Below, one piece after another: positions 4,067 to 60,388 of a stretch of 64,000 bases of DNA; position 1 is the stretch's first letter, and each line of letters begins with the position of its first letter. Position numbers and translations under genes: made by a program. The notes below the pieces were generated by a model, which worked only from the letters and a program-made list of their open reading frames with translations, was not told where the DNA came from and searched no databases. This DNA comes from Paraspadella gotoi. Taxonomy: Eukaryota; Animalia; Chaetognatha. The stretch spans positions 1,358,721-1,422,720 of the forward strand of contig CM119271.1 of NCBI GenBank assembly GCA_051294375.1, given 5' to 3'.

Positions 4067-4087
4067 TTATTTTCTTATGAATTTATG

Positions 4088-4110
4088 GTTTTTGTTCTCT
4101 CTTTTTTAAG
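4088..4110 (+). promoter_or_regulatory. Candidate trans-splice acceptor between MDC1 and TMEM69
   Basis: Polypyrimidine tract TTTTTGTTCTCTCTTTTTTAAG ends 15 nt before the TMEM69 ATG, in a 59-nt gap after the MDC1 stop. Confidence 0.5.
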
Positions 4111-4125
4111 TTCGATTTTAAAAAA

Positions 4126-4785
4126 ATGTCACTCTTTAAAAATGTGATAATCGCGGGATTTCCTCGCGGTTTTCACAACTCGTTATTATCGGGAAAGATT
4201 TTGGGCACCTGCTCCTTTTGTTTCGAGAGACTCGACAAGAACTATTCGACCACGAATCGACTCAGAGATGCGAAAGCCAAAGTCCCGGCCAAAACCGGAT
4301 TCGTCAAGAAATACTTGAGTCTGGCGTTGAAAACGACTTCCGCTCCATTCGCTCCTCTCCTCTTTGGAGTCAGCGGGCTCATTCCGTTTTATTATCCGCC
4401 CGTGATGATGATATATCAAGCCTCTTTCTCCGACGATCTGATGTTCATGCATCTTGCCTACGCCGCGACCATCCTCTCCTTCCTCGGCGGCGTCAGATGG
4501 GGTTATTGCCTTTCCCCCTCCAGCGAAACCAACCCCAATTTGCTGAATTTGGGATATTCGGTCTCGCCGCAACTCATCGGCTGGGGTTCCCTGCTCCTGC
4601 CCAACGTTCCCGGTTCCGCGTTATTGTTGATTGTTAGTTTAACCGCGTGCGCCGTTTTCGATGCCAAGATGCCTGGGTATCCGTCCTGGTTTTTGGGTTT
4701 GAGAATATTTTTAACTACCGGCGCCGTGTTTTCTTTGATTATAAGTCTCGCGTGTATGCTGGTTTTTAAGTACTTATCGAAGTAG
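4126..4785 (+). CDS. TMEM69: TMEM69 / DUF3429 membrane protein, single exon
   Basis: Family motif LAYAATILSFLGGVRWG, several hydrophobic helices, and a C-terminal YPSWFLGLRIFLT. Basic, transit-peptide-like N-terminus. Confidence 0.85.
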   Translation: MSLFKNVIIAGFPRGFHNSLLSGKILGTCSFCFERLDKNYSTTNRLRDAKAKVPAKTGFVKKYLSLALKTTSAPFAPLLFGVSGLIPFYYPPVMMIYQASFSDDLMFMHLAYAATILSFLGGVRWGYCLSPSSETNPNLLNLGYSVSPQLIGWGSLLLPNVPGSALLLIVSLTACAVFDAKMPGYPSWFLGLRIFLTTGAVFSLIISLACMLVFKYLSK

Positions 4786-31425: not shown

Positions 31426-34400
31426 AACTAATGTTAAAGAGTAAAAATTATGTTGTCATAACTGATGAAGACTCTAAAAACTTCAAGAGTCGAAACAGAT
31501 GTCTTTACCAATAATACAATTCGTTGATAAAAACAAATAAATTGTTTTTTCTCCTAAACTTTCAAAACCGCAACGAAATTGATAGTTTATACACAATGAA
31601 ATTTTATAAAATTTTTATTTTACGCTTGGAGTTGTATTCTGAATTTCGAATTTTCGTATAGAGAAATTTAGTTTTTTCTTGGTTTGATTTTTTAATATTT
31701 TTTAAAATTTTATTCTTATATAGTAAAACAAATTTTGAAAAACTTATTTAATTTTGCAATTATGATAAAATGAAATGAAACTTGTCCATAATAATAAAAA
31801 ATCGTTGTTTTTCAAAGTCACAAACACAACGAAAGAAATGATTAAAAGATAATAAATAAAAAGATACATATTAATTAAAAAAAAAAAATTAATGTATTAA
31901 TTCCCTTCCTCTCCGCCTTTAATTTCAAGGACGAAACCGCCTTCTTGGATCACGAGAACAGTAACGAACGGGAAGGCCCCTCTCCCGCCGGCGCCGGTTC
32001 CCTTAACGGCGGCCACATTGACCACCAGCCGGCGCCGGCCGTTGCCGCCCTCATGAAGCTCTCATTTGACGAAGAATACCGTCATGCCATGTGTCAACTC
32101 GGCGGGCTCCAAGCCATCGCCGAGCTCATCCAGACCGACTTTGAAACCTTCGGCCACCACCCCGTCGTGGGCGGCGGCGGTTGCGTCATGACCATGTCCA
32201 TGACAGCCTCGACCATCAGCGACAGCGACCCCCAGTATCACATCTCCATTCGACGCTACGCTGGAATGGCGTTGACCAACCTCACCTTTGGCGACGGCAC
32301 CAACAAGGCGCTGCTCTGCTCAATGAAGCATTGCATGATGGCTCTGGTGGCGCAGCTAGATTCGCCTTCGGAAGAGCTGCGCCAAGTGACGGCTTCCGTG
32401 CTGCGGAATCTCTCTTGGCGCGCGGATCTGGCGTCGAAGAAAACTTTGCGGGAAATCGGCTCTGTCTCTGTTTTGATGCAGAGCGCAATGCAAGTCAAGA
32501 AAGAGTCGACGCTAAAGGCAATCCTCAGCGCGCTCTGGAATCTCTCCGCCCACTGTTCAGAGAACAAGGCAGATATCTGCCGAGTCGGCGGCGCGCTCGA
32601 GTTTCTGGTGGGCACGCTGACCTACAAGTCGCCCTCGAAGACATTGGCCATCGTGGAGAATGGGGGCGGAATTTTGAGAAACATCTCGTCGCACATCGCC
32701 GTCAATGAAGATTATCGGAAGGTGCTGAGGCATCATCACTGCCTTCACATTCTTTTGAAGCACCTCAAGTCCGAGTCTTTGACAATTGTCTCCAACGCCT
32801 GTGGAACTCTGTGGAACCTCTCCGCACGTTGTCCCGAGGATCAAGAGACCCTGTGGGAAATGGGCGCCGTTAGTATGCTCAAGTCTCTCGTCCACTCAAA
32901 GCACAAGATGATTTCCATGGGAGCTTCGGCCGCCCTAAAGAATCTCCTCCAGGCCAAACCCAATCTCAACGTGATGACCTCCTCCTACGGAATGGGCGGA
33001 GGCGGCGGCAAGAGGAGCGGGAGCAACTCTCTCACTTCCAGCACCTACAGCAACAATGGATCTTCGCAGGGAAAGGACGACCCACTTCCTTCATTGCACG
33101 TGAGGAAGCAGCGAGCTTTGGAACAGGAGTTGGCCGCCAACGAGAATTTGCCGGAAACGTGTCCCGATAACATTGACAATCCCTCGCCTCCCGCGCGTAC
33201 GAATCTCTACCCTCATCATCACCATCACAACGGCGGGCGCCATTTTCCGAACAACAACGCCGCGGGGAATGACTCGCCGCAGTTTTCGTCGGATGTAGAT
33301 CCCAAGAGAAACTTGGTCAAGACCTTCATTCAGAATCAGGCCAAGGCGGCGAAAGAGAACGCCGCCGCTCTGCCGACTCAGGCGAAGGAAGAATCAGAAG
33401 TTTTGATCGCCGAATCGCATCATCAACAACAACAACAACCACATCTCGGCCTCGACTTTCAGCGATCTGGAAGTCAACTCTCTGGCAGAGACTTTGAACG
33501 TTCTGGAAGTCAAATCTCAGTTTGCGGCTCTTCCAAATCGGATAATGCCTTCAATCGCCAGCGCGTCATGACGAATCCCTTCGCGATCTCCGCCGAAAAC
33601 TTCACCTCTCCTTCGAATCATGCGGCGAAGAAATCCATGGATAAACTGGCCGAAATATTCCCGGCCGAGCCAAGCGCAGAGTTGTCCGGCAACCCGAGCG
33701 ACAAGGCCTTGTCCGTCGAGCCAGAAATCGTCAAAAAGTATTCCGCCTATGCCGAATCCGAGATCGAGGAGAACGAGGATCAACCCACCAACTTCAGCCT
33801 CCGCTATCACGAGGAGGAAGACGACGAGAGCGCCATCGTTAAGGAGCAGATGGAGACAGGGTGCCACGAGGATGCCGTCAAGATGTACTGCACCGAGGAC
33901 ACCCCTCTCAATTTTAGCGTCGCCACGTCCCTGACAGATTTGTCCGGCGCCGGAATCTCCAAAGAGAACGCCGGCGTCGTCGGCGTCGGGAAACGTACCG
34001 ACGAGTCTCCTCTTGAAAAAGAGGAGGCTTCCGCTTCTTCTCGAGTCGTCGAGGAAAAAGGATCATCGGCGAAGGAAGATCAAAGACGGGGTTTGAACTC
34101 GGAGGCTACTCCTCTGAACGCTCTGAACGCGGCGAGCATGGACAAAACCAACTCGTATTATGTGGAGGGAACTCCGACTTGCTTCTCTCGAGTTTCGTCT
34201 CTCAGTTCTCTCCACAGTTGCGACGCGGAAGATCGAAGATCGACTGCTTTCCCCTCCTCGGAAAAACCTAAGATCAACGATGATTCTATGTCGGCGACGA
34301 AGCAGCCTGCTCTCCCTCAGAAAGAGCCAACACCGCAACCTCCCAAGCGGGCGGGAAGCGACGTGTCGAAAATGGTCAATCCTGCCACTGGGGAAAAAGT

Positions 34401-37400
34401 GATATTGGAGGACGCTATCGTTCTTGGATCGGAAGAAGAGAAGATCAACGAAGATCCTCTTCCCTTACCCTCTCCCCCGGAAGAGCTTCTGGAAACGCCA
34501 TCCCTGACCACCGCTGTCAAAACAAAGCCAAGTGGCAAAACAGTTTCCTTCTCCCAAGAAACACCAGAATGTCAAAATCCCGCGAACCAAAAGATTAGCG
34601 AGAACATGGTGGACACGCCTCTCATGTTTTCGCGCTGTTCCTCGGTGGGATCGCTAAGCTCCATGGTTGATCCTAATTCCGTACACGACGATAGAGGCTC
34701 CGTCGTGTCTGACTATTCCCGTCTGACTTCTCGGGCAGTCTCTCCCTCTGAATTGCCCGACTCTCCTTCAGAATCGATGCCGACTTCTCCCAAGCGGGGC
34801 CGGAGCCCCATCGCGGACAAATCGCGGAAAGAAAAAGCGGTGGAGACGCCGCCTCCGCCGCCCGCCGAGTCATCGACCAAAGAAAGAGTCGAGAGACAAT
34901 TGATCGAAGTGAATTGCCCGGAAAAGCTCGTGCCCGATGATTCGACGCGCTCCTTCTGGACGGAAGGGACGCCAGGCATTTCGGGCGGCTGCTCGCGAGA
35001 ATTTTCCGAAACGTCAAGCCTCCTCTCCGCGTTGACGATCAACGACGGAGACGTCGGCGAAAAGGCGAAGATCACGAGAAAACCGACGACGACGAACGAA
35101 TCGAAGACCCTCGACGCGGCTGAGTCTAACGGCGGAAAAGGCGGTCAAGTCTCCACGATTCCTTCGGCAAAGTCGCCCGCTATGGAGGAGGCGAGCGAGG
35201 CGACCAAATCACAGGCTTCGTCTTCGATAACTTCTGTTTCGTCCGACTCCAAATCCATCGTCTCCGTGAAAGCCAACGTCAACTTTAATCCCAACTCGAC
35301 CCCGACCCTCAACGCGCCGTCGAGCGAGCGAGAAATTTGCGACGCCGAAATCTCCGACATGTCGGAAAGCGAGGAGGATTTGCTGGAAGCCGTGATCCAG
35401 GTTGGCAAGGGCAGATTGTCCGGACGAGATCAAAAGCCGAAACCTGCGAAAATTCACAAAGGCAGAACGATGGGGAATAGACGGATCGAAACGTCTTTAT
35501 CAAAAGTGGACAAAACCCAGAGTGGCGAACGAACCCATAATAAAGTGAACGTTTTGAAAATGACGACGCCGTCGGCAACGAGGGCTCGCAATTTGCCCGG
35601 AAACAAATCATCGAGCGGAGTGACGCCCGATTTGTCTAATTCCTCGTCTCCCGCCGTATCGACGCTTAACGAACCCGTCAAAAAACTGATCGCCGATGAA
35701 ATTCCACGAACCTATCACACTGAGGACACGCCGAAGACGCAGTTTAGCGCGGCCACGTCATTAAGCGATTTGACGATTGACGACGAAACGGAAACTGACC
35801 TTCGCGCTGGAAGACCCGGATTTTCTCTCGCTGGGAAGAATCAGCTGCCGCAACAGCAGCAACTGCAGCAGCAACAACAGCAACAACCCAAATCCACTAA
35901 AAATAGGGAAGAGTCTCAACTCTCCGACGACAGCAGCCTCTCCGGAGACGAATCCGATCTGATGGAGTGTATCAAGATGGCGATGCCGACGAAACCGATC
36001 TCCAGCGGTGCCGCTGTGAAGCCAAGTGAAAATATCAAGACAAAGCCGAATATTAAAATCTCTAAGACGGCGCCGCTGGTCAAACCCAAATCTGTCAAAA
36101 CTAAGCCGATATCGCAGAACCCAACGCCGATGAGAGATAATTTCGTGAGAAAATTCAATGCGTCGCCGGATCGAGGAAAAACCAAGACTCCGGAATCTAC
36201 AAGGTCCACGGAGGCTTTTCACCATAATTTGGAAGGATTTTCATCTCATATCGTCGAGCCGGGCAACGATTCGCCCATGATATTTTCGGGGGTGGAAGGG
36301 ACACCGGCCGTATTTTCGCGAAACGATTCGTTGAGTTCTCTATCCTGTGACGACGATGCTGTAGAGAGATCTCCTAAAGAAAAGAGCATCGTCAAACCGA
36401 TGAGGCATTCAAGCTTCTCGCCCGACGCGGAGAAGACGAGCGCGAAGCTCTTGCCGCGGCCCAAGACTTCTCCCGGGTTGGCCTCTCCAGTCGATTCTCG
36501 AAACGGCGGATCGACTCCACGGTCTCCCGCCCACGGACCTTCGACGGGAATCCCGAGGTTGGCTTTTCGAAGAAGCCGCACCCCTTCCGTGGAAAGGGTC
36601 AAGGTTCCGCCGATGAGCGCCGTCTCCAGCGCCACCTCGCCCAGCATTCATTCCCCTCAAACCTTTCTACAGGTGGAGGGGACCCCGATTTGCTTTTCTC
36701 GGAATTCCTCTCTTTCTTCGTTGAGTTTAGAAGACGAGGAAGGAGGGAATCAAGCGACGAGGAAAAAAGGAGACGGAGAAAATTCGGAAAAGCATAAAAA
36801 TAAAGACGATCAGATGGAAGAGGGAGAAGAGGCGTTGCTCGACGAGGTTCTAAGCGCGGGTCTGCCAAAGGGAAAATTCAAGAAAAAGCCAGGATCTATT
36901 TTTCAAAAGAATTCCTTCAAGAGAACCGGGCTCGTCCCGGGAAATTTCGGTCCTCAATCTAAAACGACGAATCGAGCGACTCCAGCTCAGACGCCCGAAA
37001 GGAAAAAGACGACGAAGCCTAACGAAGAAAGAGGAATTCCCTTCAGTCCAAAGGTAAGACAAAAGGCGGTCGTTACGCCGAAAATAAAGGAAGTCGCCGG
37101 CAAAAAAACCGTCGCAATCAACGAGCGAAAAAAGTCAGAAAATACGGAGAAAAATCCGAAAAAGTCCGCGGATCCTGAAGAGAATTTCAGCGTCATCAAT
37201 ATCGTCTACGAATCGGTGGAAGAGAAGGCAACGTTGCAAAACCGAATTCCCGATGGCGAATGCTTGGATGACATTGAAATACCCTCGATAGCCAACGAGT
37301 TGGGAGATTCTCTCTCTTCTTCCGGCGGAATGTCGCTCTCTTTAAATAGCGAGAAGGGAGGAAAGGAAGAGCCGGAAAAAGTTCTTCCTTCAAAAGTGGA

Positions 37401-40017
37401 TGACTCGACGCCGGAAGAAGGCGGATTCAAGGCCGTCATCTTCAGCGGCGGTTGGGCCACACAAGAGGGAGAAACGCTGGACGGAGCTTTCGGCACGGGG
37501 ACGACGACTACTTCGAAACCCGTTCCCGCCGTGAAATCCATAGCAAGCTCGACGAATAAAGATCAAGCTTACGAGTCGCCGGCCGTGACGACGGCGGAAC
37601 GAAGAAAGACGAAAAAAGAAGAGTTGTTAGCCGCGTTGTCGGCGGAAGTGGCGAGTCGACGCCAGCAGAAAGCCGCCTCGATAAAATCCTCTTCGGAAAA
37701 GCAAGAAGTTCGTCCGGAGATTTCTCGCGACGCTCCCAACGTTAACGACGAGACCTACCTCATCGAGAAACCCTTCGACGATTCCGTCGCCTCCCAATCG
37801 ATTTCCCTCTGTGAAGATCCCGTCAAGAATCTGAGTCCGGAGCAGCAAAGGCTTTTGGAGGCCGAGGCGAATCTCGTGGCATCTAATATACGCCAATCGA
37901 GCGAAGTTTGTAAGTTGGACGATCTCATCGACGAGTTTAATCTCATGCTCGTCAACGGGGAAGGTATCGACAACGAGACCATGTCCGTCGCCTCCTGCAT
38001 GAGCGAATCCCAGGAGATCGACGATCACACCTTCAGCAAGGCTCCGACGACGGTGGTTTCGTCCAAGGGGCCGAGGATCGTGAAGCCGAGCGAAAAGGAA
38101 GAACTCGTCGAGGCGAAAGGAGTAAGGGGGAAACGCAAGTTGTTGTATCCCTCTCAGAGCGCCAAACCGATCGCCAATGGCAACAAAGCGCCCGTTTCGA
38201 TCAGAGGAGGGGGCGGCATTTCGACGCCGGGTACGAACGAGTCTAAAACTCAATTAAGAAAGCAGCAACGAGAAGGAACCGTCATCAACAAAGCCGCGCA
38301 ACAGTCGTCGCAGAGCAAAGCTGCCAATGGTGGCCAATCGCGTTCCAACACATTCACGCGGCCGGAATCGTCGTCTTCCAATTCGTCTTCGTCCCCCATT
38401 CCTTCTCCCGTCAACCATCCGAGCAAAGAAGACAATTCCTCTCCTCCCAGGCCTCCGGGACCTGTGAAGCAAGGAACCTTCACCAAAGATTCTCCCTCGG
38501 ATAGCGAAATGAACGTCCCGCTCATTTCACCCTCTTCCCCTTCCAAATCCAAAGCTGGTCGTCTCAAGACGCAGTCGCCGTCGCCTTCTCCGACGAGCCG
38601 GGGAATCTCCGCCCCCGCTCGATCTGGCGGTCACGGATCCGCCGGTAAATCGAAAGCCGCGGTCAGCCACGCCAACCAGCGGCCACGAACCGCGACTCCA
38701 TCCGGAGTCGCCTCCAACTTCAAGAATCGCAGCGCCAGCCGCGCTAGCTTGGGCAGCAGCGGCAGCGCGTCGGCGTCCAGCCTCAAAGGAAGCCACGCCT
38801 CTTTGAGTTCGAGCGGGAATAAGTCTGGAAACAAAAAGGCGGCGTCGACGAGCGATTTGATCGCCAACGGAGTCGCCTCGCGTCATTACAAGAACAAAGA
38901 AACTCTGCAATCCGTCGAAAAGACTAAAGCAAAGTCTGTCTCGGCGGGCGGACTCAACAATCCCCGATTGACCGTCTCGCCCAAGGGTGCGGAGAAAAGG
39001 GGCGCAGCCGGGCCGTCCACGGCCGTCGTGGGTCCGAGCAAACGGACCGCCGTCGTTAGCAAGATTGCGAGTCTCTGGAAAAAGGAGAAGAAAAGCGAAT
39101 CCGAGGGAAAAGAGGATGGAAAGGCAGAGGCCGGCAAAGACCCCGCCCTCACTAAGAGCTCCACCTACGAAAAATTGGAAAACGCGTCCCTCGACGCGCT
39201 AAACGCGGGAAAGAAGAAACAGGGAACCTTTACGAAAGACGACAAATCCGCCAAACCCAAACTGGACAACTCCGCCGGCATCTCCTCCATCGGCGGGTGG
39301 GCGAAAAAGAGAGCGGAGAGAGTCTCCAACTCGGAATCCAAGTCCAAAGCGGCAAAAGCAAAGAACAAATCTTCTTTCTACGTCAATCTCGAGTATTCCG
39401 CCGGCGAGGGTCAAAGTTCGTCGGAACCGGCGGCGGGCGCCTCGGAGTCTTCGCGGGACATATGGGTGAAACGGGCCGACGCCGCGGCGAGTCTCGACGA
39501 ATGCGGCAAGGGTCAAGGATCTGAGGAGCGCCGCCCATATTCATCGCAAAACTCCGAGGCCGGCAGCACCAAGTCGGTCAATCGCGCCGGAAACAAGACG
39601 CCCACTTTGGAGCGACTTAACTCTTTCATTAAGTTCGACAATTGGAGCGGAGCGGAGGATGCGGCCGACAGGCGCTCCACCTCTAGTGGAGCATCTACAC
39701 ACGCCGGCGCTGCATCCTCCAACGGGCGCGCCGACTCAATCACGAGTCTTTCCGCCAAATCCTCGGGACGAGTCTCTGTCGCTTCTCTGCAACGGAGCCC
39801 CACGACCGAATCCATCATGGCCGCCGCCTCCGCCGCCGTGCAAATCGTAACGCCGTTTAACTGGAGTCCGCCTGCCGACGCTGCCGAAGCCGATGAAGAC
39901 GCCGGCATTGCTCGAAGTCGGAAGCAGTCGAGCTCGGCGCGGTCCAATGCGGATTCGGCCGAACTCGAGGCCGAAGACGGAAGGAAGAAGAGCACCTGCT
40001 TGATCACGACTGTGTGA
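24997..40017 (+). CDS. APC: Adenomatous polyposis coli; 2 exons 24997-26232 and 31930-40017 (about 3100 aa)
   Basis: GSKVEMVYSLLSML...SCIAMRQSGCLPLLIQLLH. Armadillo repeats (RRYAGMALTNLTFGD, LRNLSWRAD). 15-aa repeat EDQPTNFSLRY and multiple 20-aa repeats (EGTPxxFSRxSSLSSL). Region B/CID (TPLMFSRCSS...SPSELPDSP), SAMP-like CIKMAMP, C-terminal PDZ ligand ITTV. Phase-0 GT-AG junction. Confidence 0.95.
26431..26940 (-). repeat. Penelope pseudo-LTR, 3' copy, with (GA)n tracts
   Basis: Near-identical to 30559-31045 (direct) and to part of 31044-31598 (inverted). Confidence 0.9.
26478..26537 (-). ncRNA. Minimal type I hammerhead ribozyme, copy 1
   Basis: Minus strand reads UAA-CUGAUGA-A-GACUCU-aaaacuca-AGAGUC-GAAA-C-AU-GUC/UUA. 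Intact core boxes, 6-bp stem II, self-complementary ACAUGU stem III, GUC cleavage triplet. Confidence 0.85.
27069..30523 (-). pseudogene. Frameshifted Penelope RT-GIY-YIG polyprotein ORF
   Basis: RT, thumb and endonuclease motifs appear in the right order but are spread over several frames (ORF-track pieces at 27069-28850 and 29988-30434). Confidence 0.8.
30606..30665 (-). ncRNA. Minimal type I hammerhead ribozyme, copy 2 (about 90 nt upstream of the element ATG)
   Basis: Same motif as copy 1, but the first stem II pair is disrupted (AACUCU vs AGAGUC). Confidence 0.7.
31452..31512 (+). ncRNA. Minimal type I hammerhead ribozyme, copy 3 (sense to the APC pre-mRNA)
   Basis: CTGATGA at 31462-31468, GACTCT/AGAGTC stem II, then GAAAC-AGAT-GTC. 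Confidence 0.78.
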
Positions 40018-47845: not shown

Positions 47846-48342
47846 CCTTTTTTTCCTTTGAACAATTAGATGAAATTTAATACTACTAGTTCTTTCTCCT
47901 GTTTATACTTGTGCCATGTTTTAATTAGTGTTTGATTTCGAATGCTCCATGACTTTTTAAAAATTGTTATCGATATTGGAATGAATGCCTATTGTGATTT
48001 CAATCATAACGCAAAATATTTATTTGAAAATACAAATTGTATTTCGCAGGTTTTTTTCTCAAGTTGTTGTAAATTCTAATTAGTAGATATAATCATTTCG
48101 CTGGATGATAGTCAGTCAGCTTTTAAAAATTCTTGGCAGATAATTTTTGGGCTCAAATTCCAGAAAGATTTCGGTTTATGCAGTCAATAGATAATACAAC
48201 AATCACCCTCTTACACTGATAATACTGACGTGAGGCAGCGAAAATGGTTGCGAAGCATCTTGGTCAAATCTTTACCGTTCAATTCCGAATTTTAATATGC
48301 ATTTATTAAAAAAAATTTTTAGAAAGCAAAAAAATCGGAGGC

Positions 48343-51098
48343 ATGATTTCTCCGGCCGTCTCTCTCGGCCGAAACTCGACTTTCCGGCAACTTTGTCGAA
48401 CAACATTCCGGTTGTCCTACCCTTTACATAGTCGACAATTGAGCAACAACAACGACAAAGTTGAGGACTATGAATCTTCGTTCCGCCGATCACTCGCGGA
48501 TCCGCGGGGATTCTGGGCCGACGCCGCAGAGAAACTCGTCTGGCACAAAAAGTGGGATAGAATTTTGGACGATTCGAACCCGCCTTTCATCAAGTGGTTC
48601 GTCGGCGGCGAAATCTCAGCCTGCTACAACGCCGTCGACAGACACGTCGAGGCGGGCGACGGCGACAAGGTCGCCCTTATTCACGACAGTCCCGTGACGA
48701 ATTCCTGCAAAACCGTCACGTATGGGGAATTGCTATCTCAGGTGGTTGTCGTCACGAGGCGGTTGACATTTGTGGTGGTTTTCCATCACAAATCTACCTA
48801 AGTTGCTCAAGGTTAAAAACTTTTTTCTCTGGAGAGACACGTATGGAAGAGAAATATTTAGATTATACAATTTGAAAGAATTCCGTGAGTTAAATGACTC
48901 GTAAAAGAATAGTATTTACTATGTACCGATGAAAATATATTATATATATATATAATAAATTAAAAATATCTAAAATCCATACCACTCAAGGTTCGATGCT
49001 TGGCGGACGTGCTCCGCCGCCAAGGAGTCGAAAAGGGCGACCGCGTTGTAATCTACATGCCGATGATCCCCGAGGCCTGCGTGGCCATGCTGGCCGTCCA
49101 GCGCCTCGGCGCCTGCCACTCCCTCGTCTTTGGAGGCTTTGCGGCCAAGGAGCTGGCGACGAGAATCGACCATGCCATGCCCAAGGTCATCTTGACGACC
49201 AATTGCGCCGTAGAGCCCGACCGTATCATCGATTACAAGGCCACCGTCGACGAGGCCCTCAAGATCGCCACCCACCCTACACTCAAGACGCTCGTGTTCG
49301 ACCGACCAGAGGCGCTGCCGGCAAAGCTAAATCCCCGACATGACCTCAACTGGCAAGAAGCGGTAGCGGGCGCCATCGGGGTTGACTGCGTCCCCTCCGC
49401 CGCCACCGATCCCATGTACATCCTCTACACTTCCGGTACGACGGGGAAACCCAAAGGCATTCCGCGGCCGCTCGCGGGGCAGATCGTCTGCCTTCATTGG
49501 AGTATGAAGAATCTCTATGGAATGAACCCGGGAGAGGCGTGGTTTTGCGCCTCGGACCTCGGTTGGGTCGTCGGCCACTGCTACGTCTGCTACGGACCCC
49601 TTTTAGCCGGAAACCCTTCAATCATTTACGAGGGAAAGCCCGTGACGACGCCCGACGCTGGCGCACTTTGGCGCGTGCTGAGTCAGCACGGCGCCGCGGG
49701 TCTATTCGCCTCGCCGTCCTTCGTCCGCGCCGTTCGTCGGGTCGATCCCAACGCAGCGCTCAAGTCGCCCCACGACCTCTCCAAGCTGCGCAACCTCTTC
49801 CTGGCCGGGGAGCATCTCGACGTCAACACGCTGAGTTGGCTGCGTGACGTCGTGGGCGAGGGGGTCGGCGTCCTGGACCACTGGTGGCAGACGGAGACTG
49901 GATTCGCCATCACGGCTCCCTGCGTCGGAATGAGCGGGGCCGGTCGACAGCCCGACGGGTCGGCGGGGCTACGAGTGCCCGGCTGGGATCTGAGGGTGCT
50001 CAGAGAGGACGGATCAGAGGCCGAGCCCAACGAATTGGGGTCATTGGCCGCCAAGCTTCCACTGCCGCCTGCTTCCTTCGATACGCTGTACAAGGCCGAC
50101 GACAGATTTGTTTCGACTTACTTCGAAAAGTTTTCTGGTTATTACGATACACAGGTGAGGGTATGATGTCAGTATAACGGACTTCGACTATAACTTTCAG
50201 CTGCACTTAAAGAATGGGCCGTTATAACTCTCTTACGAAATATGAAAAAAGCATATTCTCGAGCTCGAATTACAAGAATAAATAGGAAAACCACAAAAAA
50301 ATATAACGCAACAAACTTTGCTCATTTAAAATAATAATATAAACCTCTAAAGAGATAAAGTAAAATTTTATTATTATTTAATCAAAACACAACAATATGC
50401 AAATTGGTTTATCACTCAATCTCATTGGAAACGATTCACAAATTACTCTGCTTCACACTCATCGCCTTACGATGATGATGGATGGAAATCTAAGTTACCC
50501 ATTTTGTTTTTTGAGGTTTACATCGATAATTACTGTATTAAGTATTAACCGTTAAAGAGAGTCATACTGATAAAACCAATTGGACCGAATCACTATTACT
50601 TTCGTAATTTTTGTGTTATCATCACAGGACGCTGGGATGATCGACGCTGACGGTTTCGTCTTTGTTCTCTCTCGTCAAGACGACGTGATCAACGTTTCGG
50701 GGAAGCGCATCTCCGGTGGGGCGCTTGAGGAGGCCATCATGCGGCAGACGGATGTTGCCGAGTGCTGCGTCTTTGCCATACCCGATGAACTGCAGGGCGA
50801 GCGGCCCGTTGGGCTCGCCGTTCTCAAGGGCGATGTTGTCAAGAGTCGCGAGGCGATCGCCAAGGAGATCGTCGGCCTGGTCCGCAGCAACGTGGGTCCC
50901 GTTGCTGGATTTAAGACCGTCGTCTTCGTCCCGCGCCTGCCCAAGACGCGAACGGGCAAGATCCCGCGCAGCACAATCGCCGATCTGGCCACGGGGAACC
51001 CGGTTAAGATTCCCGTCACTATAGAAGACGAGACGGTCTACGGCCCGCTGGACGAGGCCTTTAAGGAAGCGGGGCTCAAGCTCAAGGTCAAACCTTGA
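48343..51098 (+). CDS. ACSS3: Mitochondrial acyl-CoA synthetase short-chain family member 3; exons approx. 48343-48741, 48991-50154, 50628-51098
   Basis: Transit-peptide-like N-terminus. KWFVGGEISACYNAVDRHV, AMP-binding YILYTSGTTGKPKG, ASDLGWVVGH, DHWWQTETG and LPKTRTGKIPR. Confidence 0.9.
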
Positions 51099-51317
51099 AA
51101 TCGGGAGTGGGTTTTGGGAAAGCGCCTTTTTGTCAAGCTCAAGGGAAACGTAACAATTTAACAAGATGTTAAATGTTACACATTTTGACGCGAAACTTAT
51201 GGCGAGTCCAAATTCGAAGAACACCCGTTTTTCTATTTCTCTGGTGATTTCGAACTTCTAAGTTCAAAAATTTATCAGTTTTTACAGTTTTTTAATTTCA
51301 AGTTATTGTTTTTTTGG

Positions 51318-51502
51318 GGTTACTTTTACTTTCGCCGACCGGGGTTAGGGTTAAGGGTAATTTAAGGGTGGTTTAGTGTTAGGGGTGGTTAGGGTTAGGG
51401 TAATTAAGCAATATTTTTTATTAATTTTTTTTAAAAATAAGAATTTTTAAATGATTTTTCAAAAACCGCCATAACCGCGGTCGGCGAAAGTAAAATTTAG
51501 CC
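51318..51502. mobile_element. MITE-like element with ~30-bp TIRs enclosing TTAGGG-like repeats
   Basis: TTTTACTTTCGCCGACCG (51324-51341) and its exact reverse complement CGGTCGGCGAAAGTAAAA (51478-51495). Internal GGGTTAGGG repeats. T-runs on both flanks. Confidence 0.7.
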
Positions 51503-52131
51503 GTTTTTTTTACAAGAGATCTGTATTTTTCACAAAGTGCATGTTGTTAATCAGGGCTTTTTCAAATGTAATTTTTTACAATGCCCTTTTTTGTTGGTAT
51601 TAAACGCAAAGCGAAAAGCAAGTTTTTAATACGTTACTTATATTTTTTCCAAATTTGGGAACTAAGTCATTCCATCGTCCAAAATTCTTGTTTTTATCTG
51701 CATAATCTGCCGCTTTATTTTATTTTTTTAACAATATTAACAAGATGCTTCGAATATTTGCATCAGTCATGTTCTAGTCGCTATAATTTTCCTAGTTGTT
51801 CATGGTGCCAGTAGTAGTATTATAGTTTTATCACTTTCATTTTTACTTTTTTTTGGTTACAGGTTCGGTTCTTTAACTAGTTTTTTTTTTCTGAAAGAAA
51901 ACCGAGCAAACAAATAATCGCGGGAATGGTTGCAAAAAATTTAAATGATATTAACAATAAATGTGAACCAAAAAAAGAAATTTAGAAAAAGAGATCAGGG
52001 GACAAAGTCAAGCTAGTCAAACTAGTTAGTTCGATTTACTGAGGTGATAAAGTTAATTTTTAGCCATTGGTGCTTTAATACGCATTCCTTTTTCTTTGTA
52101 TAATTTTTTATACCGGAATTGTAGATATGAA

Positions 52132-55100
52132 ATGAAAGGTTTCGATGAAAAAGATGAGAGCGACGCACGAACTAACAACGACGACGTCGCGGACAATGAT
52201 TTTGAAAGGAAAAGGAGAGAACTGGAAAGACGAGTGGGAGGAGAAAAGGAAGCCGAAAAACAATTCGTGATTATGGGTGAAGAAATGAATCGTGAGGATG
52301 CTGCGCCTGTGATACGGACGATTCAGAGTGACAGGATGAACGAGCAAACAGTCGACGCCTCTAATATCTCAAAGGGTCCCGTCGATCTCACCGTGGACCC
52401 TTCAATGGATCTCAATGGAGACGTCGTTACCCTTCCAAGTGTGACCGAGGATAATTCTGCGACACATTCGGCCATTTTTAACATCGACTCCTCAAGCAAT
52501 AACCTCAAAGTTTCTAATTCGAGCTTCAAGGATGAGCAGCCCTCACTTCTCACATGCGCGCTCGTCGAAAACTCCAACGAAGCTCCCGTCCCTGATCTTC
52601 CGGACGATGTTTCCCCCTCGAACAAACCTCTTGAGCCCCAAAATTTCACGACAGTCGCCCCTCTGTATTTTCTTCCAGACCCTGCTAAATCTGAGTCCCT
52701 GGAGCACGACCCTCCTCATTCCGAGTCCCCGAACTTGATTCCTCCTAAATCCGAGCCTCTAAAACTTGACCCTCTTAAATCGGAACCGAATCCACCGCCA
52801 CCAACAGTCGCCATCGTCGTAGAAGAAATCCTTGACTCCGACAGTTCCGTTTCCCTCCCTCCTTCTCCCCGACGCCGTCGACGGTCGCGCCCTCTTCGAT
52901 CCTCGCCCACTCGAGACTCGGACGTGGAGATTCTCAGTTCCGACGACGAGGCGATCCTGCTCAAAAAAGCCGAAGATGCGCGGAAGAAGAAGAGACAGGT
53001 TGTCCGGGGTCCAAAATTAATATGAAATTGCATTCGGTGAAGACTCTGAAGTGGTATGATTTTTTTTGCCAACTTTCTTCCAACTACATAAATTTAAGGA
53101 CAGCTCCCATAAATATTTGATCAGGGGAATACTATTGTATAAGCAGCTAAGCAGCCTTTTTTTCCAAAACTTTAGTTTACATATGAAATCGCCTCTCAGG
53201 AAAAGACAGTCCTCGACACCTCCAAGAACATCCTCAACTCTATCAAACGATTCAAGTCTTCAAACGGCTCCATCAAGATACCTTCGTTGAACAACATCGT
53301 CAAGAAGCAAGTCGTCGATGCGAACTCAAAGGGTCGTTGGGCCGGCGACGCTGTCGAAGCCGTTGAAGGCGTCACTAATGGTTCCGATCCCTCATCGCCG
53401 TGGACGATAGAGGAGAGTCGAGGCAGCACACCCTGCGAGGACCCGCTGCAACCGGAGGAAGGCGATGAGCCGTGGGAGGAGGCGGATGAGGGGGAGAAGA
53501 AGGAAGAAGAGGCTCGACCGGCAGAGTCTTTGACGGCAGAGGGCGTGAGGGAAGCGGCGCGGAAGAACGCCGCCATCAACGCCGAGTACAATGTCGAGAA
53601 GATTCTCAAGGTTGGTTAATGGTTATTGGCAATTCGGTTTGTAAAGCGGCGGAGGAGGAGGATTTTGAAAAGATTGTCTTCCCCCACCTTACAGGGACTA
53701 AAGGCCGCGACGCTGACCCTCAACAAGATTTCCGACGTCCGTAGCCGAGCGGACGAAAGCGCGGAGGCGGCGGAATCAAAGGAGAGTTTTTGCGAGATCG
53801 TGATCGACTCTAGCGACGACGACGACGTGGACGACAAGGCGGACGTCGACCGAAAAAACGACGACGACAACGGTTTGGAGAAAACTCAGGTGGCCAAAGT
53901 CGCCGAGCAACTCAACGATGCAGGTCGGGATATTGTACCTATTATCGTTCTTGTCATTTTTGTCACTTTTGTCATGACATTGTTAACGTTTTAGTCAAAT
54001 AACGAGGTTAATTAATTAGTGAATACAAGTTATTAGGTTGACAATAGTTTAACAACGGGCAATGATAAAGGTTGGGGTCTTTCCAGGCGTCACTGTTAAA
54101 AAGGCCGTCCCCAAAAAGCCGAGGCAATTATTTCCCAAATGGCAAACGGTTCCCAATCTTCCTTCGATGGAGGATGTAGTTTCAGAAAATCGACCTGTGA
54201 CGCAACCGCCGCCTCTCCCAGACCATTTGCGACGACCCATGAAGGTTTGTTGGTTTATTGAGAGCGATATGGCGGAATTTGAATCGAATGGAACAAAATT
54301 CGTGTTTAGCAGAATCTCTTTAAATATTATTATAATACATACATTATGGCTACTAATATATAATAATAATGGATAATTTTTATATTGGTTGTACCAATTT
54401 CATATATATATATATATATATTATAAAAGTCTCCCTCGTTCTCCTTTCCTCCCTCCAGGTACTCTCCATGTTCGACGGAATCTCCGGCTGCTTCGTCGCC
54501 CTCCGCCAACTCGGCATCAGCGTGGACACTTACGTCTCGAGCGAGACGGACGCCTACTCGAAGATCGTGACGATGATTCGCCATCCCGAGGCCGTACAGG
54601 TTGGCGACGCGCGCGGTGTCGACCGCCGCCTTCTCGAGGAGCACGGACCCTTCGATTTGCTCGTCGGCGGCCTCCCGGTCGACGACTTCGAATCCCGATC
54701 CTCGCTGAAGGAGCATCGTCCGGGGATGCACTTCGAGGCCTTCGTTGACGTGCTCAACCTTTGTTGGAAGCATCATCGAAAGGTTTGGCGAAAGCTGGAT
54801 GAGAATTTGAGGAGGTTTTATATAGAGTATCAATGAATACTTGTACTTGTTTAAATCATTAACGAGTTTATCACAATGTTTTTACCCTTGTCTCCTTTAC
54901 AAACCGTCCACGTTCATTTTACAACCTACAGTCCGGTCTACTCACGCCCTTCTACTGGTGCTTCTACAACGTCGACCTCGTTCCTCGTCACCGCGACGAA
55001 ATCACCTCCACGCTCGGCTGTGATTGCGTCAAACTTGACGCCGTCCATATCTCGCCCATGAGGAGACCAGACTTTTTTTGGACCAACCTTCCCGGGATGG

Positions 55101-55750
55101 AAATGGTGCTTAAGCCGGACCCGCGATGGGACCGAACCGTGTTACAGGTCCGGGGGTGTTAATGAGAGAGAGGGAAGCTTAACCTCTTCCTCCTCAAATG
55201 TTCGCGTTCCCCCCCGTATACGAGATAGGCGGACGGAGGAAGGAGCAGGGCGTTAACCTGGAGGCCCTTTTTCAAAATATAACATTGTGTACGAGATAGG
55301 CGGACGGAGGGAGGAGCAGGGCGTTAACCTGGAGGCCCTTTTTCAAAATATAACATTGTGTACGAGATAGGCGGACGGAGGAAGGAGCAGGGCGTTAACC
55401 TGGAGGCCCTTTTTCAAAAATAACATTGTCCCCCCCCCCCATTCACTCCCCAGGATTGTCTCGAGCCCGCCCGGCTGGCCCGCGTCCGTCGTCTCAACAC
55501 CCTGACGACCTCCTTCGACTCGATGAAGCAAGGATCCTTCCATCAACCCCCCATCAATCACGAGGGTGAGCTCGATGATCTCTGGATGGTTGAGGTGGAA
55601 CGCGTTCTCGGCTTTCCCGATCATTACACGGACGTGGCGAATCTTCCGCCGCGCGATCGACTGGCGCTTCTTGCCATCTCCTGCTCCGTCCCGCTCGTCC
55701 GTCACATCCTCGCTCCGCTGAAAGACTATTTCGCCGTCGAGAAGGCGTAG
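52132..55750 (+). CDS. DNMT3-family protein with substituted catalytic residues; 7 exons approx. 52132-52998, 53200-53610, 53694-53922, 54087-54244, 54459-54783, 54932-55147, 55454-55750
   Basis: RRPMKVLSMFDGISG, VGDAR, GPFDLLVGGLPVDD, PFYWCFYNV, RRPDFFWTNLPGM, LQDCLEP, SMKQG, VERVLGFPDHYTDVANL and SVPLVRHILAPLKDYF are collinear with the DNMT3 methyltransferase domain. The frame stays open across GT-AG junctions. Linkage of the N-terminal exons is less certain. Confidence 0.85.
55216..55429. repeat. 71-bp tandem triplication in the last DNMT3-like intron
   Basis: ACGAGATAGGCGGACGGAGG recurs at 55220, 55291 and 55362. Units are almost identical. Confidence 0.9.
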
Positions 55751-56429
55751 AAGCGGAAAAGGGAATTCCCATTTGAAAATTAAAAAAGGTGTTTATAGGA
55801 CAATTAGTTTCTCATAATTCGAAAAAGGAAGAGAAACTGCTCCCCGTTTCTCTTCTTTTAGCTTCAAATAACCCCCCTCCTCATCTTATGGTCGTTTTCC
55901 TTTGCTCTTCACATGCTTGGCCATCTCCAACGACATTCCGTTTGACACATTCCGACCTTTTGATGAAATTCTCTCTGTTCTCATCCTTTTTCTCTCATTT
56001 TAATTTCAATCAATTCTAGACAAAGAATGAATTAATAAATTCTGCCATCGCTTCAATCTTTTTTCTCTTTTCCCGACGATCGAATTTTTACATCGAAATT
56101 CGATAGACCCTTTTTTCAACTATTAAATTTTCATAAATCTGTCAAAAACTATTCAAACTTCATTATTATTAGTGAAATATTTTTTATAAAACATTTCATC
56201 GCCAGTATTTATTTTTATTGGTTCCAGAGTCTCTTATGACGCGACTCTTTTAAAAATTAAAAATAAAAACTTTTCTCTTGATCCACTTGGCGGAAAAAAA
56301 AGTGAGGCCATGGACATGGGCGACATCGTCGAATGAAGGGCGGCGAGGGGCTCCGCGAGACCATGTCCCCTCCGCCGCAGCAATGCCGCTCGGCATTGAC
56401 ATCTTCCTTCTCTCGGAATCCCCGAAGCA

Positions 56430-59012
56430 ATGAGTCGAGATCCCGCCGGTTCTGTCTCGAGTGATCATCGCCAAAGTCAAAGTCGGTGAGGCTCGAAAAT
56501 GTGGAGACAATCCACGAGGTTTTTGAAGTCAGATACAAAAAGGGTTTGAATAATAACACTGTAAATCTCATATCAAAAAATATCGCAGGGTACATCAGCA
56601 ACAATATAAATAAAAATAGAATTAATTAATTAATTAAAGCGTAGCAAAAATATTGAAATCAAGGAGAATAAAAATTCGAATATTTATAAAATTATAAAAT
56701 TCATATTTAAATTTTAACTCAATAAAATCGTTGTGAACACAAAAATCGATTTTTTCCTAATATTTAATTTAAAAAAAAATTGTCAATTTTCGCATATCCC
56801 ATAGTATACATAGTATACATAGTATACATAGTACTCATCATAGAAAATGTCAATTTAAAATGTTTTTTTCTTATTTTTGAAAGCAGATGCGAATTTTTCT
56901 AGAAAGTTGATAAAAGGAAATATAAGAACTTTCACTACGCCTTATTAATTAGGCAACGTGTGAAACATTACTAATCTTCGAGATTATCCTGCATTTTCAT
57001 GTAATTAAGATAAAATTTATTTTCCGTCAAAAAAAACCTATTTCATTAATTGTTCAGTTCTTTTTTTAAAAATAAGATAACTGTCAGGGTAATAATTAAA
57101 CCTAAAAGCTTATCCGTTGCCGATAGTAAGTCTTTTAATGTCCGTTGACGAGAATTACCCGTCGGATTCGACTTAATCTTGGGTCTCCTTTGATTTATTA
57201 CTTCCAAGTTCATCTTCCCATCACCATCTCATTTCATCGCCGAGAGAGAAATCCACCACCGTGGTTCCATCGACCTGTTCCAAAGAGTTGACTAGAGCCG
57301 AACCGGAATCAACTCGAGAAAACCTCGAATCCGACACCGGACTCTTTGATAACGGTGAGGGTGCCGGAACGCACGGTTGGGATGGTGCGCTTACCCGCTA
57401 TGACACAGATGATTCGATATTAATGTAGTTGATGTGAGGCAGTTTCTTTAAATAATATATCATTTGCGCGATTTAGTTAAAAAAATATATTTTTAAATCT
57501 CAGTTCCCGACCTCGAATCGCTTTTCTCCCCGAATCCGAAGCCAGAGAATCAACGTCTTGACCCACGCCCTGATAGTTCAGTCAACCACCGCCTCGCCCG
57601 CTTCTCCTCGGTCCCAACTTCCCACCGTTCTTTCGCCCGAGTCGAAGCCTCTCAACCTGCCTCTCAATCCCAGTTGCAGTCCATCCCCGAGACCGCCGCC
57701 TCCGGCTCCGCCCGACCGAGGAAACGATCTCGACCCTCCATCGATTCCGTGAGATTGAAAAATTCAAATTCGACGAGGGACGGGATCCAAGTTTGAAGTT
57801 TGGAAGGGAATTAATGACGGATCACAAAGAATGAGTTTCTTGAAGAATTCAGAAGCCGTAAAGGGTATATTTTAAAAGTGTTTGGTTCCAGCCCGTTAGA
57901 CTTATTAGTTTCGTATCATACTTTTAATTATCGACGGAAAGTACGAGCGAAAAAAGTGGCCAAAATAAACAAAAACTAAATTATTTAAAAAAAAACAACA
58001 TTTTTTCTTGAGGAAGGAAGGAAGTGGGTGAGAAAAGGACGAGGTTTCGCCACAGCCAAAGGAGGATTCTCTTTTTTTCGTTGCCTCAACCAACGAGCAG
58101 GAGAAGAAAGTTTTCTTTTCTCGCTTTTGTGAGAAACATTTTTGCGGTTGAGCGATCTTTCCAATTCTTTCTCCTTTTCTCTCTTTTTTTTTCTTTCTTC
58201 AACTCCTTTTCCGCTCGTTTCACTTTTTTTTTTTAAAACTCGTGCGCCCTTTGCATCTCAGGAATCCTCGCCAGCACTTTTCTCGTCCCCCGTCGAGCGC
58301 CTCGCCCCTTCCGCCGAGCGCCTCCCTCCGTCGGCGCCGACTCGCCGTGGACGAAAACCTTCGAAGCTCGACATGAAGTCCAAGTTGGAGAAAAGCCGAC
58401 AGAGCGCGCGGGAGTGTCGCGCCAGAAAGAAATTGCGCTACCAGTACTTGGAAGAGTTGGTCAACGCCAGAGAAAAAGCCATTCTCAGTTTGAGAGAGGT
58501 AGAAGCTGGAAGGGTTGGGGAAAGACTGAAGTGGGACGGGTTGTGGTTATAATTATATGGTCATTATTTGCTTCAAAAAATGTATATTTTGTAAATACAT
58601 GAAAAACTTTTTAAAATTATTGAATGTAGTTTTGCACCGATATTTAAAAAAATTAATAAGTTGTGCGGCAATAATTTATTATTCGTTTATCACCATTTTT
58701 CAAATGCCTCCCCCCCTTTTCCTCCCCTTCATTAAACTGTTTCAGGAGTTGGAGGTTTACAAAAACTGGTGCCGAGACATGGACGAGGGTCGCGTCCCGC
58801 CCGACATGAAGGCAAAGATGGAAAAGTTGGAGAAAAAATTGGAGATGCCCGGAGAGCGGTCGGGCGACGCCGAGTCCGCGGACCCGGCCGACGAGGAAGA
58901 CGACGACGAAGAGGACGAAGTCGATTCCGATGACGACGACGTCTCGGACGAGGAGGAGGAAGAGGACGAAGAAGAGGAGAGAGAAAGAGCTGGAGGAGGC
59001 TCCAATCGATGA
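56430..59012 (+). CDS. CREBL2: CREBL2 / REPTOR-BP bZIP protein; probable exons 56430-56485, 57209-57354, 57504-57748, 58262-58498, 58746-59012
   Basis: [39 protein letters not shown]...RE|[18 protein letters not shown] is diagnostic. The three upstream exons join with matching phases (2, 1, 0) but are lower confidence. Confidence 0.85.
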
Positions 59013-59374
59013 AGGCGGGGAAGTAATTGTCAACTTCCGAGCTTTTCAAAATGTGTGGAGGTGCTTAATTTTTTTGTCGAATTTGTAAACAACGACGAAT
59101 TATGTACGGAACTTTCTTCTTTATCATCGTTTTTACTCCCTTGTTATTTGTACAAAATAAAATCTAGTCATGTTGTATTGTATTATTGTGGGTTTGTTTG
59201 GGTTTTTTTTATCCGCCGTTGGCTCATTCACTTATTGTTTGAATATTTAGAGTTTTTACTCGCGTATAACAATGAATTCCATGCGTCAAATGTGATTAAA
59301 GTGAACCAAAATTTACTCCAATTATTATTATAATTTTTCCTACCAAAAAACTTTTCTAATCCTCCCTAAAAAAG

Positions 59375-60388
59375 ATGATGTCGACTCGTTCCGACGTTTA
59401 TTCGTCCGCCTCTTCTCGACTACGACTTGATCCACCGACTCTACCCTCTCAGTCTATGTCCCTCTCATCTTCCCACCCTCCTTCCCACCGCCCACGCCTC
59501 TCACACTTTCCCAAAGAGCCCCTGTCGAGAGTAATGCCGCCCCGCGTGGCTTTGCTCCGCGGGCGCGCCCCTCTGACCGACGAAGAGATCCGAAAGCACG
59601 GGTGGAACCCCAACGACAAAAGTTCCAACCTCTACTTGCGACGCGGAGGAAAAAACTCAGAAGATCGGCTCTGGGTCCGACGGAACAACGTCGCTCGAAG
59701 CACGGACGCTATACGCGGCCGCACGGGTTACCGTGTTGGGACGCACCTTTGGGAGATCACTTGGGACACGAGTCAGCGTGGCACGCACGCCGTTGTGGGA
59801 GTGGCCACAAAGGACGCGCCACTACACTGCGATGGCTACCGGGCGTTGGTCGGCTCCAACGCCGAAAGTTTTGGCTGGGAACTGAGGACTAATAACCTTC
59901 TTCACAACGCGAGACCCGAAGACGATGAGGAAGAAGAAGAAGGCGGAGGCGGGGACCCCGCCGATCGTCGACTCTCTCTCGGCACCGAGGACGTGGACAA
60001 CAACGCCCCCGAGGCGCCGGGACGAATCCCGCTCAATCCGCCCCGCAAGTACCCGGTCAAGGGAGAGGCGCCCAACTCTTTCGAAGCGGTGCTGGACTTC
60101 GAGGACGGGACCCTCGCTTTCATCGTCGACGGGGAATACCAAGGAGTCGCCTTCGAGAATCTTAAGGGTCTCGAACTCTATCCCGTCGTCAGCTGCGTCT
60201 GGGGCCACTGCGAAATTCGCCTCCGCTACCTTGGCGGTCTCCCCGAGCAGCCATCCACCCTCTTTGACTATTGCAAGAGGACGATTCAAGCCAGAGTGCC
60301 CAGGAGGCAGGATTTAGAAGTCCTACCACTCCCCAAGCATATTTTGACGCATCTGAAAGAGACTCATCATTTGGGACAGGCACAATAA
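59375..60388 (+). CDS. SPSB: SPRY-domain SOCS-box protein (SPSB1/4, gustavus-like), single exon
   Basis: HGWNPNDKSSN, STDAIRGRTGY, QRGTHAVVGVAT, LVGSNAESFGW, LYPVVSCVWGHCEI, and a SOCS box (LFDYCKRTI...LPLPKHILTHL). Confidence 0.9.
   Translation: MMSTRSDVYSSASSRLRLDPPTLPSQSMSLSSSHPPSHRPRLSHFPKEPLSRVMPPRVALLRGRAPLTDEEIRKHGWNPNDKSSNLYLRRGGKNSEDRLWVRRNNVARSTDAIRGRTGYRVGTHLWEITWDTSQRGTHAVVGVATKDAPLHCDGYRALVGSNAESFGWELRTNNLLHNARPEDDEEEEEGGGGDPADRRLSLGTEDVDNNAPEAPGRIPLNPPRKYPVKGEAPNSFEAVLDFEDGTLAFIVDGEYQGVAFENLKGLELYPVVSCVWGHCEIRLRYLGGLPEQPSTLFDYCKRTIQARVPRRQDLEVLPLPKHILTHLKETHHLGQAQ

Follow-up and report, generated by a model that had tools for sequence, protein, structure and literature searches.

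Does a DNMT3 gene whose catalytic residues have been replaced still encode a working protein, and what could such a protein do? The question is raised by a gene in a 64,000-nucleotide stretch of the genome of the arrow worm (chaetognath) Paraspadella gotoi (assembly GCA_051294375.1, contig CM119271.1, positions 1,358,721 to 1,422,720 of the forward strand), referred to here as the window. A preliminary description, made from the letters alone, had presented the gene as an intact but catalytically dead DNMT3, comparable to mammalian DNMT3L. By its domain, the encoded protein belongs to the DNMT3 family; it has neither the motifs of an active enzyme nor the affinities of a DNMT3L ortholog, and its probable mode of action is that of an accessory pseudoenzyme.

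The gene comprises seven exons on the forward strand (52132-55750), with GT..AG borders at all introns, and yields a coding sequence of 2502 nt for 833 amino acids plus stop, free of internal stops and frameshifts. The best structure-chain matches of exons 5, 6 and 7 are DNMT3A/B (E = 1e-15, 1.8e-7 and 4e-25, respectively), and the C5-methyltransferase family (PF00145) was found above cut-off, in agreement with the earlier view of an intact C-terminal domain collinear with DNMT3. In run X9, contig 27 (2945 nt, depth 149) spans 51882-55960 and is spliced at the predicted sites of all six introns, and none of these joints is present in the DNA runs X5 and X7. X9 was judged to be transcript from its six GT..AG joints, and contig 27 is therefore a spliced transcript; its depth is a contig depth and not a readout of tissue or expression level, and its support for exon 4 consists of the two flanking joints. 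Two listed coding differences separate contig 27 from the window, a silent C>T at 54671 and the loss of 9 nt, in frame, at 53353, and each of them recurs in X5 and X7. The transcript carries identical replaced catalytic residues (C710V, E756Y and R792D in human DNMT3A numbers) and does not restore the PC and ENV motifs. Human DNMT3A numbering was taken from matches to the full-length chain 9lq1; for positions 728-739 we assume the register, which agrees with consensus Phe732 and Arg736. A sequencing artefact was ruled out by identical codons in X5, X7 and X9; X5 and X7 represent two studies besides the possible source sample. The features of the gene are listed below (FF and RD denote two faces of DNMT3 oligomers, discussed later).

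51882..52131, + strand: 5' untranslated region (UTR) up to the reach of contig 27, which starts at 51882; in-frame stops lie upstream of the ATG.
52132..52998, + strand: exon 1, coding, amino acids 1-289; acidic, Pro/Ser-rich low-complexity sequence with basic clusters and no Pfam family (transcript, translation, Pfam).
53200..53610, + strand: exon 2, amino acids 290-426; acidic, low-complexity, with the in-frame 9-nt length polymorphism at 53353 (transcript, translation, Pfam).
53695..53923, + strand: exon 3; acidic tract (transcript, translation, Pfam).
54087..54244, + strand: exon 4; pre-catalytic segment that aligns with its equivalent in protein P0127 (PKKP...LF..W) (translation, both flanking joints).
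54459..54782, + strand: exon 5; motifs I-V, with FDG kept, GGLPVDD (S708L, C710V, N711D), S714E, L730H, and F732E and R736D on the FF face (translation, alignment).
54932..55147, + strand: exon 6; motif VI FYNV (E756Y), F772T on the FF face, motif VIII RPDF (R790 kept, R792D) (translation, alignment).
55219..55429, no strand assigned: high-copy 71-bp repeat, three copies in tandem within intron 6, spliced out (repeat search, transcript).
55454..55750, + strand: exon 7, coding; full target-recognition domain (TRD), RD-face residues W860, H873, D876, N879 and R885 kept, motif X AISC (G890A, W893C), stop TAG (translation, alignment).
55751..55960, + strand: 3' UTR up to the reach of contig 27 (transcript contig 27).

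The 71-bp repeat of intron 6 has a summed contig depth of up to 76,000 in X5, as in a very high-copy satellite or element.

What the domain has lost was assessed against 157 blastp matches, 82 of them spanning the domain and 75 partial. Residue counts use 80 references, with P0279 and P0127 set aside, and P0267, P0233, P0173 and P0126, which are gapped or fused, were excluded from the tree and from the 76-reference counts. Glu756 and Trp893 are present in 80/80 references and are Tyr and Cys in the window protein; Arg792 (79/80) is Asp, and Cys710 (78/80) is Val. Val thus replaces the motif IV Cys, Tyr the motif VI Glu, and motif VIII RxR reads R-P-D. The codons described earlier, GTC at 54678-54680 (GGLPVDD) and TAC at 54965-54967 (FYNV), were found again in the translated exons, as were motif VIII RPDF and motif X AISC. 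Among the 70 columns conserved in at least 90% of the 76 references, the window protein keeps 46 and loses 24, and P0127 keeps 65. The losses are clustered in the catalytic loop (S708L, C710V, N711D, S714E) and at cofactor-near, base-holding and FF-face positions; we take L730, G890 and W893 to belong to the cofactor pocket and E756 and R792 to be the base-holding residues. Motif I, E664, D686, G707, P709 and R790 are kept. The claim that S-adenosylmethionine binding is preserved therefore holds for motif I, E664, D686 and G707 but not for L730H, G890A and W893C, and the target-recognition region keeps KQG but carries N838D, with S714E in the catalytic loop as well. E756A has been used as a catalytically dead DNMT3A (bioRxiv 2025.09.24.678339). 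Because the catalytic residues are replaced and E756A alone gives a dead DNMT3A, inactivity is a strong prediction, and the window protein is very likely, judging from its residues, to be incapable of methyl transfer.

Relatives were retrieved with exon 7, which matched 285 proteins at E ≤ 0.001 (the best 150 of the 285 were examined), and by a cluster look-up that led to P0279. P0279 (240 aa, without motif I) shares 64.8% amino acid identity with the window protein over 236 aa and has the motifs GGLPCND, FYNV, RKPD and AMSG. E756Y, R792D, S708L, S714E, L730H, F772T, N838D and G890A are common to both, and fragment P0132 is of the same dead type. The loss of catalytic residues, put forward earlier as the key feature of the gene, is thus clade-wide for E756Y and R792D, but the loss of Cys is not shared, since P0279 keeps Cys710. 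The predicted model of P0279 has the DNMT3 domain fold (predicted local distance difference test, pLDDT, 87.6; best match 6kda_A, E = 3.5e-23), with catalytic-loop residues 39-49 at pLDDT <50. In P0127 (527 aa) every catalytic motif is intact, the N-terminus is acidic, and the pre-catalytic segment is like that of exon 4. In a tree of 34 rows, of which three are short fragments and none is a DNMT3L sequence, the dead clade (n = 3) is supported at 100/100 and the active-type clade (n = 3) at 100/99, and the two are joined at 100/99. The dead clade and the intact-motif clade arose from one duplication.

Two sequencing runs guessed to be RNA, each from another organism, carry related contigs, whose typing rests on flanks and fitted letters, not on catalytic columns. 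A 229-nt contig of X10 covers motif VIII with 5/54 letters differing, and its flanks are P0279-like in a translation by eye. In X11, long contig A has flanks identical to P0127 (also by eye), and long contig B fits the window at 35/42 letters, where P0127 shares only 4/14 residues. As X11 has two different contigs, both paralog types are likely present in one animal. With exons 5 and 7 as queries, word-based homolog searches returned two and three proteins, the gene's own product not among them, and a metagenome scan retrieved 3/132 stretches (L001-L003) with one unrelated DNMT3, its FENV and RxR intact, and no ortholog DNA. These three, from Joint Genome Institute (JGI) metagenomes, are near-identical intron-containing DNMT3 loci of an unrelated animal (about 1340-3950 in L001). 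Two further proteins, P0001 and P0002, are 415-aa C5 methyltransferases with motif IX/X-like sequence ahead of motif I, that is, circularly permuted, if the motif labels we assume are right.

The long acidic N-terminus had been described as devoid of PWWP and ADD. Neither domain has a Pfam match in exons 1-4, and both ADD models were recovered in control P0129; the first 555 aa contain 3 Cys. A missed PWWP/ADD exon was ruled out, as the exons are directly joined in the transcript and the sister paralog is of the same build. The transcript upstream of the ATG is unspliced. P0127 is also without PWWP and ADD by Pfam, and is the only one of the 82 references with an N-terminus of at least 200 aa and <2 CxxC. 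P. gotoi has been reported to carry six DNMT3 copies, none with ADD or PWWP (PMC12460157). The described N-terminus is hence confirmed, but the absence of PWWP and ADD does not distinguish the dead copy, because the intact-motif P0127 and all six published chaetognath DNMT3s lack them too. SUMO-interacting motifs in the N-terminus are unsupported (1 motif, shuffle p = 0.17). Elsewhere in the family, P0133 and P0136, both tunicate-clade DNMT3s, have intact catalytic motifs and N-termini that by eye are unlike a standard ADD.

The faces through which DNMT3 domains associate point to a possible role. DNMT3 oligomers are formed through two faces: FF, which is hydrophobic and the docking site of DNMT3L, and RD, which binds DNA (PMC10908127). 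FF residues F732, R736 and F772 are named in the same paper, and RD residues W860, H873, D876, N879 and R885 in bioRxiv 2025.09.24.678339. All five RD residues are kept in the window protein, P0279 and P0127. The three FF residues are E/D/T in the window protein and Q/E/T in P0279, at positions that are Phe in 73/76, Arg in 72/76 and Phe in 63/80 references. The net charge of the domain is -5 in the window protein and -2 in P0279, with a median of +5 in active references. Because, by sequence, the FF face is lost and the RD face, which DNMT3L does not use, is kept, the protein is not DNMT3L-like in build, and it also has no ADD; on this point the preliminary description does not stand. From the aligned residues, it seems somewhat probable that the window DNMT3 binds an active paralog through RD. 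That it serves as a non-catalytic partner of an active sister DNMT3, pairing via the RD dimer face, is the reading we favour, tentative but quite conceivable. Tethered dead (E756A) DNMT3A recruits active DNMT3A to a reporter in cells (bioRxiv 2025.09.24.678339); since DNMT3L and DRM3 are likewise positive partners, such a partner would be considerably more probable as a helper than as an inhibitor.

In the mechanism we propose, Tyr756 would fill and Asp792 would repel within the flipped-base pocket, preventing methyl transfer, and RD pairing with the active paralog would leave the dimer with a single working site. As a targeting arm, the long acidic N-terminus would replace contacts once made by PWWP and ADD, and the target would be transposon DNA in the germline. 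The full scheme, in which a dedicated pseudo-methyltransferase evolved independently in arrow worms as a mirror image of DNMT3L, builds an RD-joined half-active dimer, substitutes for the lost PWWP/ADD readers and steers de novo methylation to transposons, is speculative and doubtful as a whole.

The path between the window gene and P0279 amounts to 0.71 changes/site and about 168 inferred amino-acid changes, with the frame open throughout, where 7.1 stops are expected under neutrality (P(0) = 0.0008); when the count is limited to the 83 observed differences, the expectation falls to 3.5 stops (P = 0.03). The test gives an upper limit on strength, because protein databases favour intact frames. 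The GC content at third codon positions (GC3) of the domain is 0.74, compared with 0.65-0.75 in three neighbouring coding segments and an intron GC of 0.39, and identity between the window protein and P0279 is 41/57 in conserved columns against 48/91 in variable columns (p = 0.025). Read together, the sequences suggest that the window DNMT3 is very probably functional and under selection. The earlier suggestion of a preserved fold and a selected non-catalytic role gains from expression, predicted inactivity and a frame kept relative to P0279, while a spliced transcript, a dead ortholog of 65% identity and an open frame are not those of a young pseudogene. A decaying duplicate, in which a transcribed gene is turning into a pseudogene, would account for the 24/70 highly conserved columns lost, the long stem branch (0.62-0.81) and the loss in the window copy of the Cys still present in P0279, from which it follows that change went on after inactivation. 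It is nevertheless very improbable, given the lack of any stop over those changes, the GC3 similar to that of neighbouring coding segments, and the dead-type relatives in P0279, P0132 and runs X10 and X11. A residual or altered enzyme, with weak cytosine methylation or another substrate, is just as hard to credit: motif I, E664, D686, P709 and R790 are kept and P0279 has the Cys, but the window protein is without Cys710, Glu756 and Arg792 together, W893 and L730 are changed, and E756A alone is used as dead DNMT3A (bioRxiv 2025.09.24.678339).

Other readings accept a functional dead protein and differ on what it does. It could act without a partner, the dead domain associating with itself or with chromatin proteins and repressing or scaffolding without active DNMT3. 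The lack of CpG depletion in 14 window coding segments (observed/expected 1.07-1.50), the sighting of the active-type paralog only outside the window species, and, as cited in PMC8016896, repression by DNMT3A/B that does not depend on catalysis and the broad influence of Daphnia DNMT3.1 on expression would all be compatible with this. However, an intact-motif sister clade exists, both types occur in X11, and unmethylated gene bodies are expected under transposon-only methylation (PMC12460157), so that we regard it as rather unlikely. Less likely still is an inhibitor, RD-bound to the active paralog, that caps or poisons the dimer, limits methylation and shields genes. The RD face is kept while DNA-contact and catalytic-loop sites have become acidic (S714E, R792D, N838D; net -5), and DNMT3A RD-face variants are dominant negatives (bioRxiv 2025.09.24.678339), but the dead paralogs DNMT3L and DRM3 stimulate methylation or are needed for it (PMC10908127, PMC2965745). 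A true DNMT3L analog, with hydrophobic FF-face docking and allosteric stimulation of the active enzyme, has the precedent of DNMT3L itself (PMC10908127), and the FF face of P0127 is remodelled, its Phe residues at 771 and 732 being a possible fit for a partner that co-evolved; with E/Q at F732, D/E at R736 and T at F772 in both dead orthologs, no ADD, and the TRD and RD face kept, it appears quite improbable.

Several observations weigh against an RD-paired partner of an active sister. The FF face of P0127 is also altered (F772S, Y735A), which leaves room for co-evolved FF docking; the acidic drift and the lost DNA contacts suit an inhibitor equally; and retention of the RD residues could reflect a stable fold or self-dimerization and not a partner. 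The constraint between the window protein and P0279 (41/57 vs 48/91, p = 0.025) is only modest. The active-type paralog has been seen in P0127-type records and run X11, that is, outside the window species, and the DNMT3 tree sets the dead and active-type clades beside tunicates (93/85, unstarred). A protostome placement of the DNMT3 clade is not rejected (approximately unbiased, AU, test p = 0.13).

Compared with known systems, the window gene resembles mammalian DNMT3L in being a dead paralog of a de novo DNMT3 that is retained alongside an active one (PMC10908127, PMC2965745). DNMT3L, however, has a PHD/ADD histone reader, binds at FF, does not touch DNA and does not extend the oligomer (PMC10908127, PMC2965745), whereas the window gene has no ADD, no longer has the FF residues and retains the TRD in full together with the RD face. 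P0279 scores 165 bits to DNMT3B versus 30 to DNMT3L, no DNMT3L chain is among the 31, 30 and 32 listed matches of exons 5, 6 and 7, and the dead clade is sister to the P0127 clade at 100/99, so an origin independent of DNMT3L, as first suggested, is upheld. Daphnia magna DNMT3.1 is also an invertebrate DNMT3 with a diverged catalytic domain and a proposed partner of an intact paralog (PMC8016896), and a dead invertebrate DNMT3 is therefore not new in itself. DNMT3.1 is without five of six motifs, retaining motif VI only, and the partner, DNMT3.2, is reported to have lost PWWP (PMC8016896); the window gene is set apart by its motif content, having lost motif VI and kept the fold and motifs I and IX, with both paralogs without PWWP/ADD. 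Plant DRM3 is likewise a conserved clade of de novo paralogs with catalytic mutations, needed for repeat methylation; one member of the clade has the Cys yet is predicted dead, and the motif X Gly is lost (PMC2965745). Unlike the window gene, DRM3 belongs to a plant family of independent origin with rearranged motifs and UBA domains (PMC2965745).

Dead DNMT3 paralogs are thus already known in DNMT3L, DRM3 and Daphnia DNMT3.1; what appears to be new is the reader-less pair of a dead and an active type, the pattern of RD kept and FF lost, and the setting of transposon-only methylation. In P. gotoi, genes are unmethylated and transposons methylated, DNMT3 is expressed in the germline, and operons occur (PMC12460157); DNMT3.1 and DNMT3.4 count as germline markers in the published single-cell atlas. 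The DNMT3 set of that study and the window are alike in PWWP/ADD loss, unmethylated gene bodies and tight gene spacing (PMC12460157), traits from which, together with the APC placement given below, a chaetognath would be the likely host. In the text and supplement PDFs of PMC12460157 available to us, "catalytic", "pseudo" and "active site" have 0 matches and "inactive" refers only to chromatin regions, and no report of an inactive chaetognath DNMT3 was found in the literature, subscription papers being outside coverage.

CpG is enriched across the window (observed/expected 1.29; 1.07-1.50 in the 14 coding segments), and TpG and CpA are mostly low, so that there is no signature of gene-body methylation. 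At 4055-4135, two same-strand open reading frames (ORFs), which we presume to be MDC1-like and TMEM69-like, lie 59 bp apart from stop to ATG with a pyrimidine tract and an acceptor-like AG between them, an operon-like arrangement that is possibly trans-spliced. Upstream of the DNMT3 gene, a 186-bp element at 51317-51502 has 34-nt inverted arms (85%) and TTAGGG-like units, like an insertion of a miniature inverted-repeat transposable element, and is high-copy in sequencing runs of the same organism. A 417-nt X9 contig at 51473-51889 (depth 103) passes over a strong acceptor-like site at 51861-51862 without splicing and may represent an extended UTR, an outron, or transcription running on from the upstream gene. 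The APC gene (31879-40017) contains one 8.1-kb open stretch ending in CLITTV, and the ENA protein P0007 is 90% identical to it across the armadillo region. In a tree whose rows include no named chaetognath or tunicate APC, the window APC clusters with protostomes at 100/98 support and lies outside both the arthropods and the molluscs plus annelids sampled; placing it with vertebrates (p = 0.0015) or with chordates (p = 0.013) is rejected. This speaks against the tunicate affinity that the DNMT3 tree would suggest, and Xenoturbella does not fit the tree either. Ordinary neighbours on the same strand encode an AMP-binding acyl-CoA synthetase, a bZIP protein and a SPRY protein (48310-51098, 58133-59012 and 59360-60388).

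How de novo methylation is aimed at transposons without DNMT3 chromatin readers is an open question in the few animals that have given up gene-body methylation (PMC12460157). A dead paralog that is conserved and accompanied by an active one is a candidate for a subunit that targets or regulates methylation. With it, DNMT3 pseudoenzymes would have one more independent origin, the only one among those compared that is predicted to use RD over FF.

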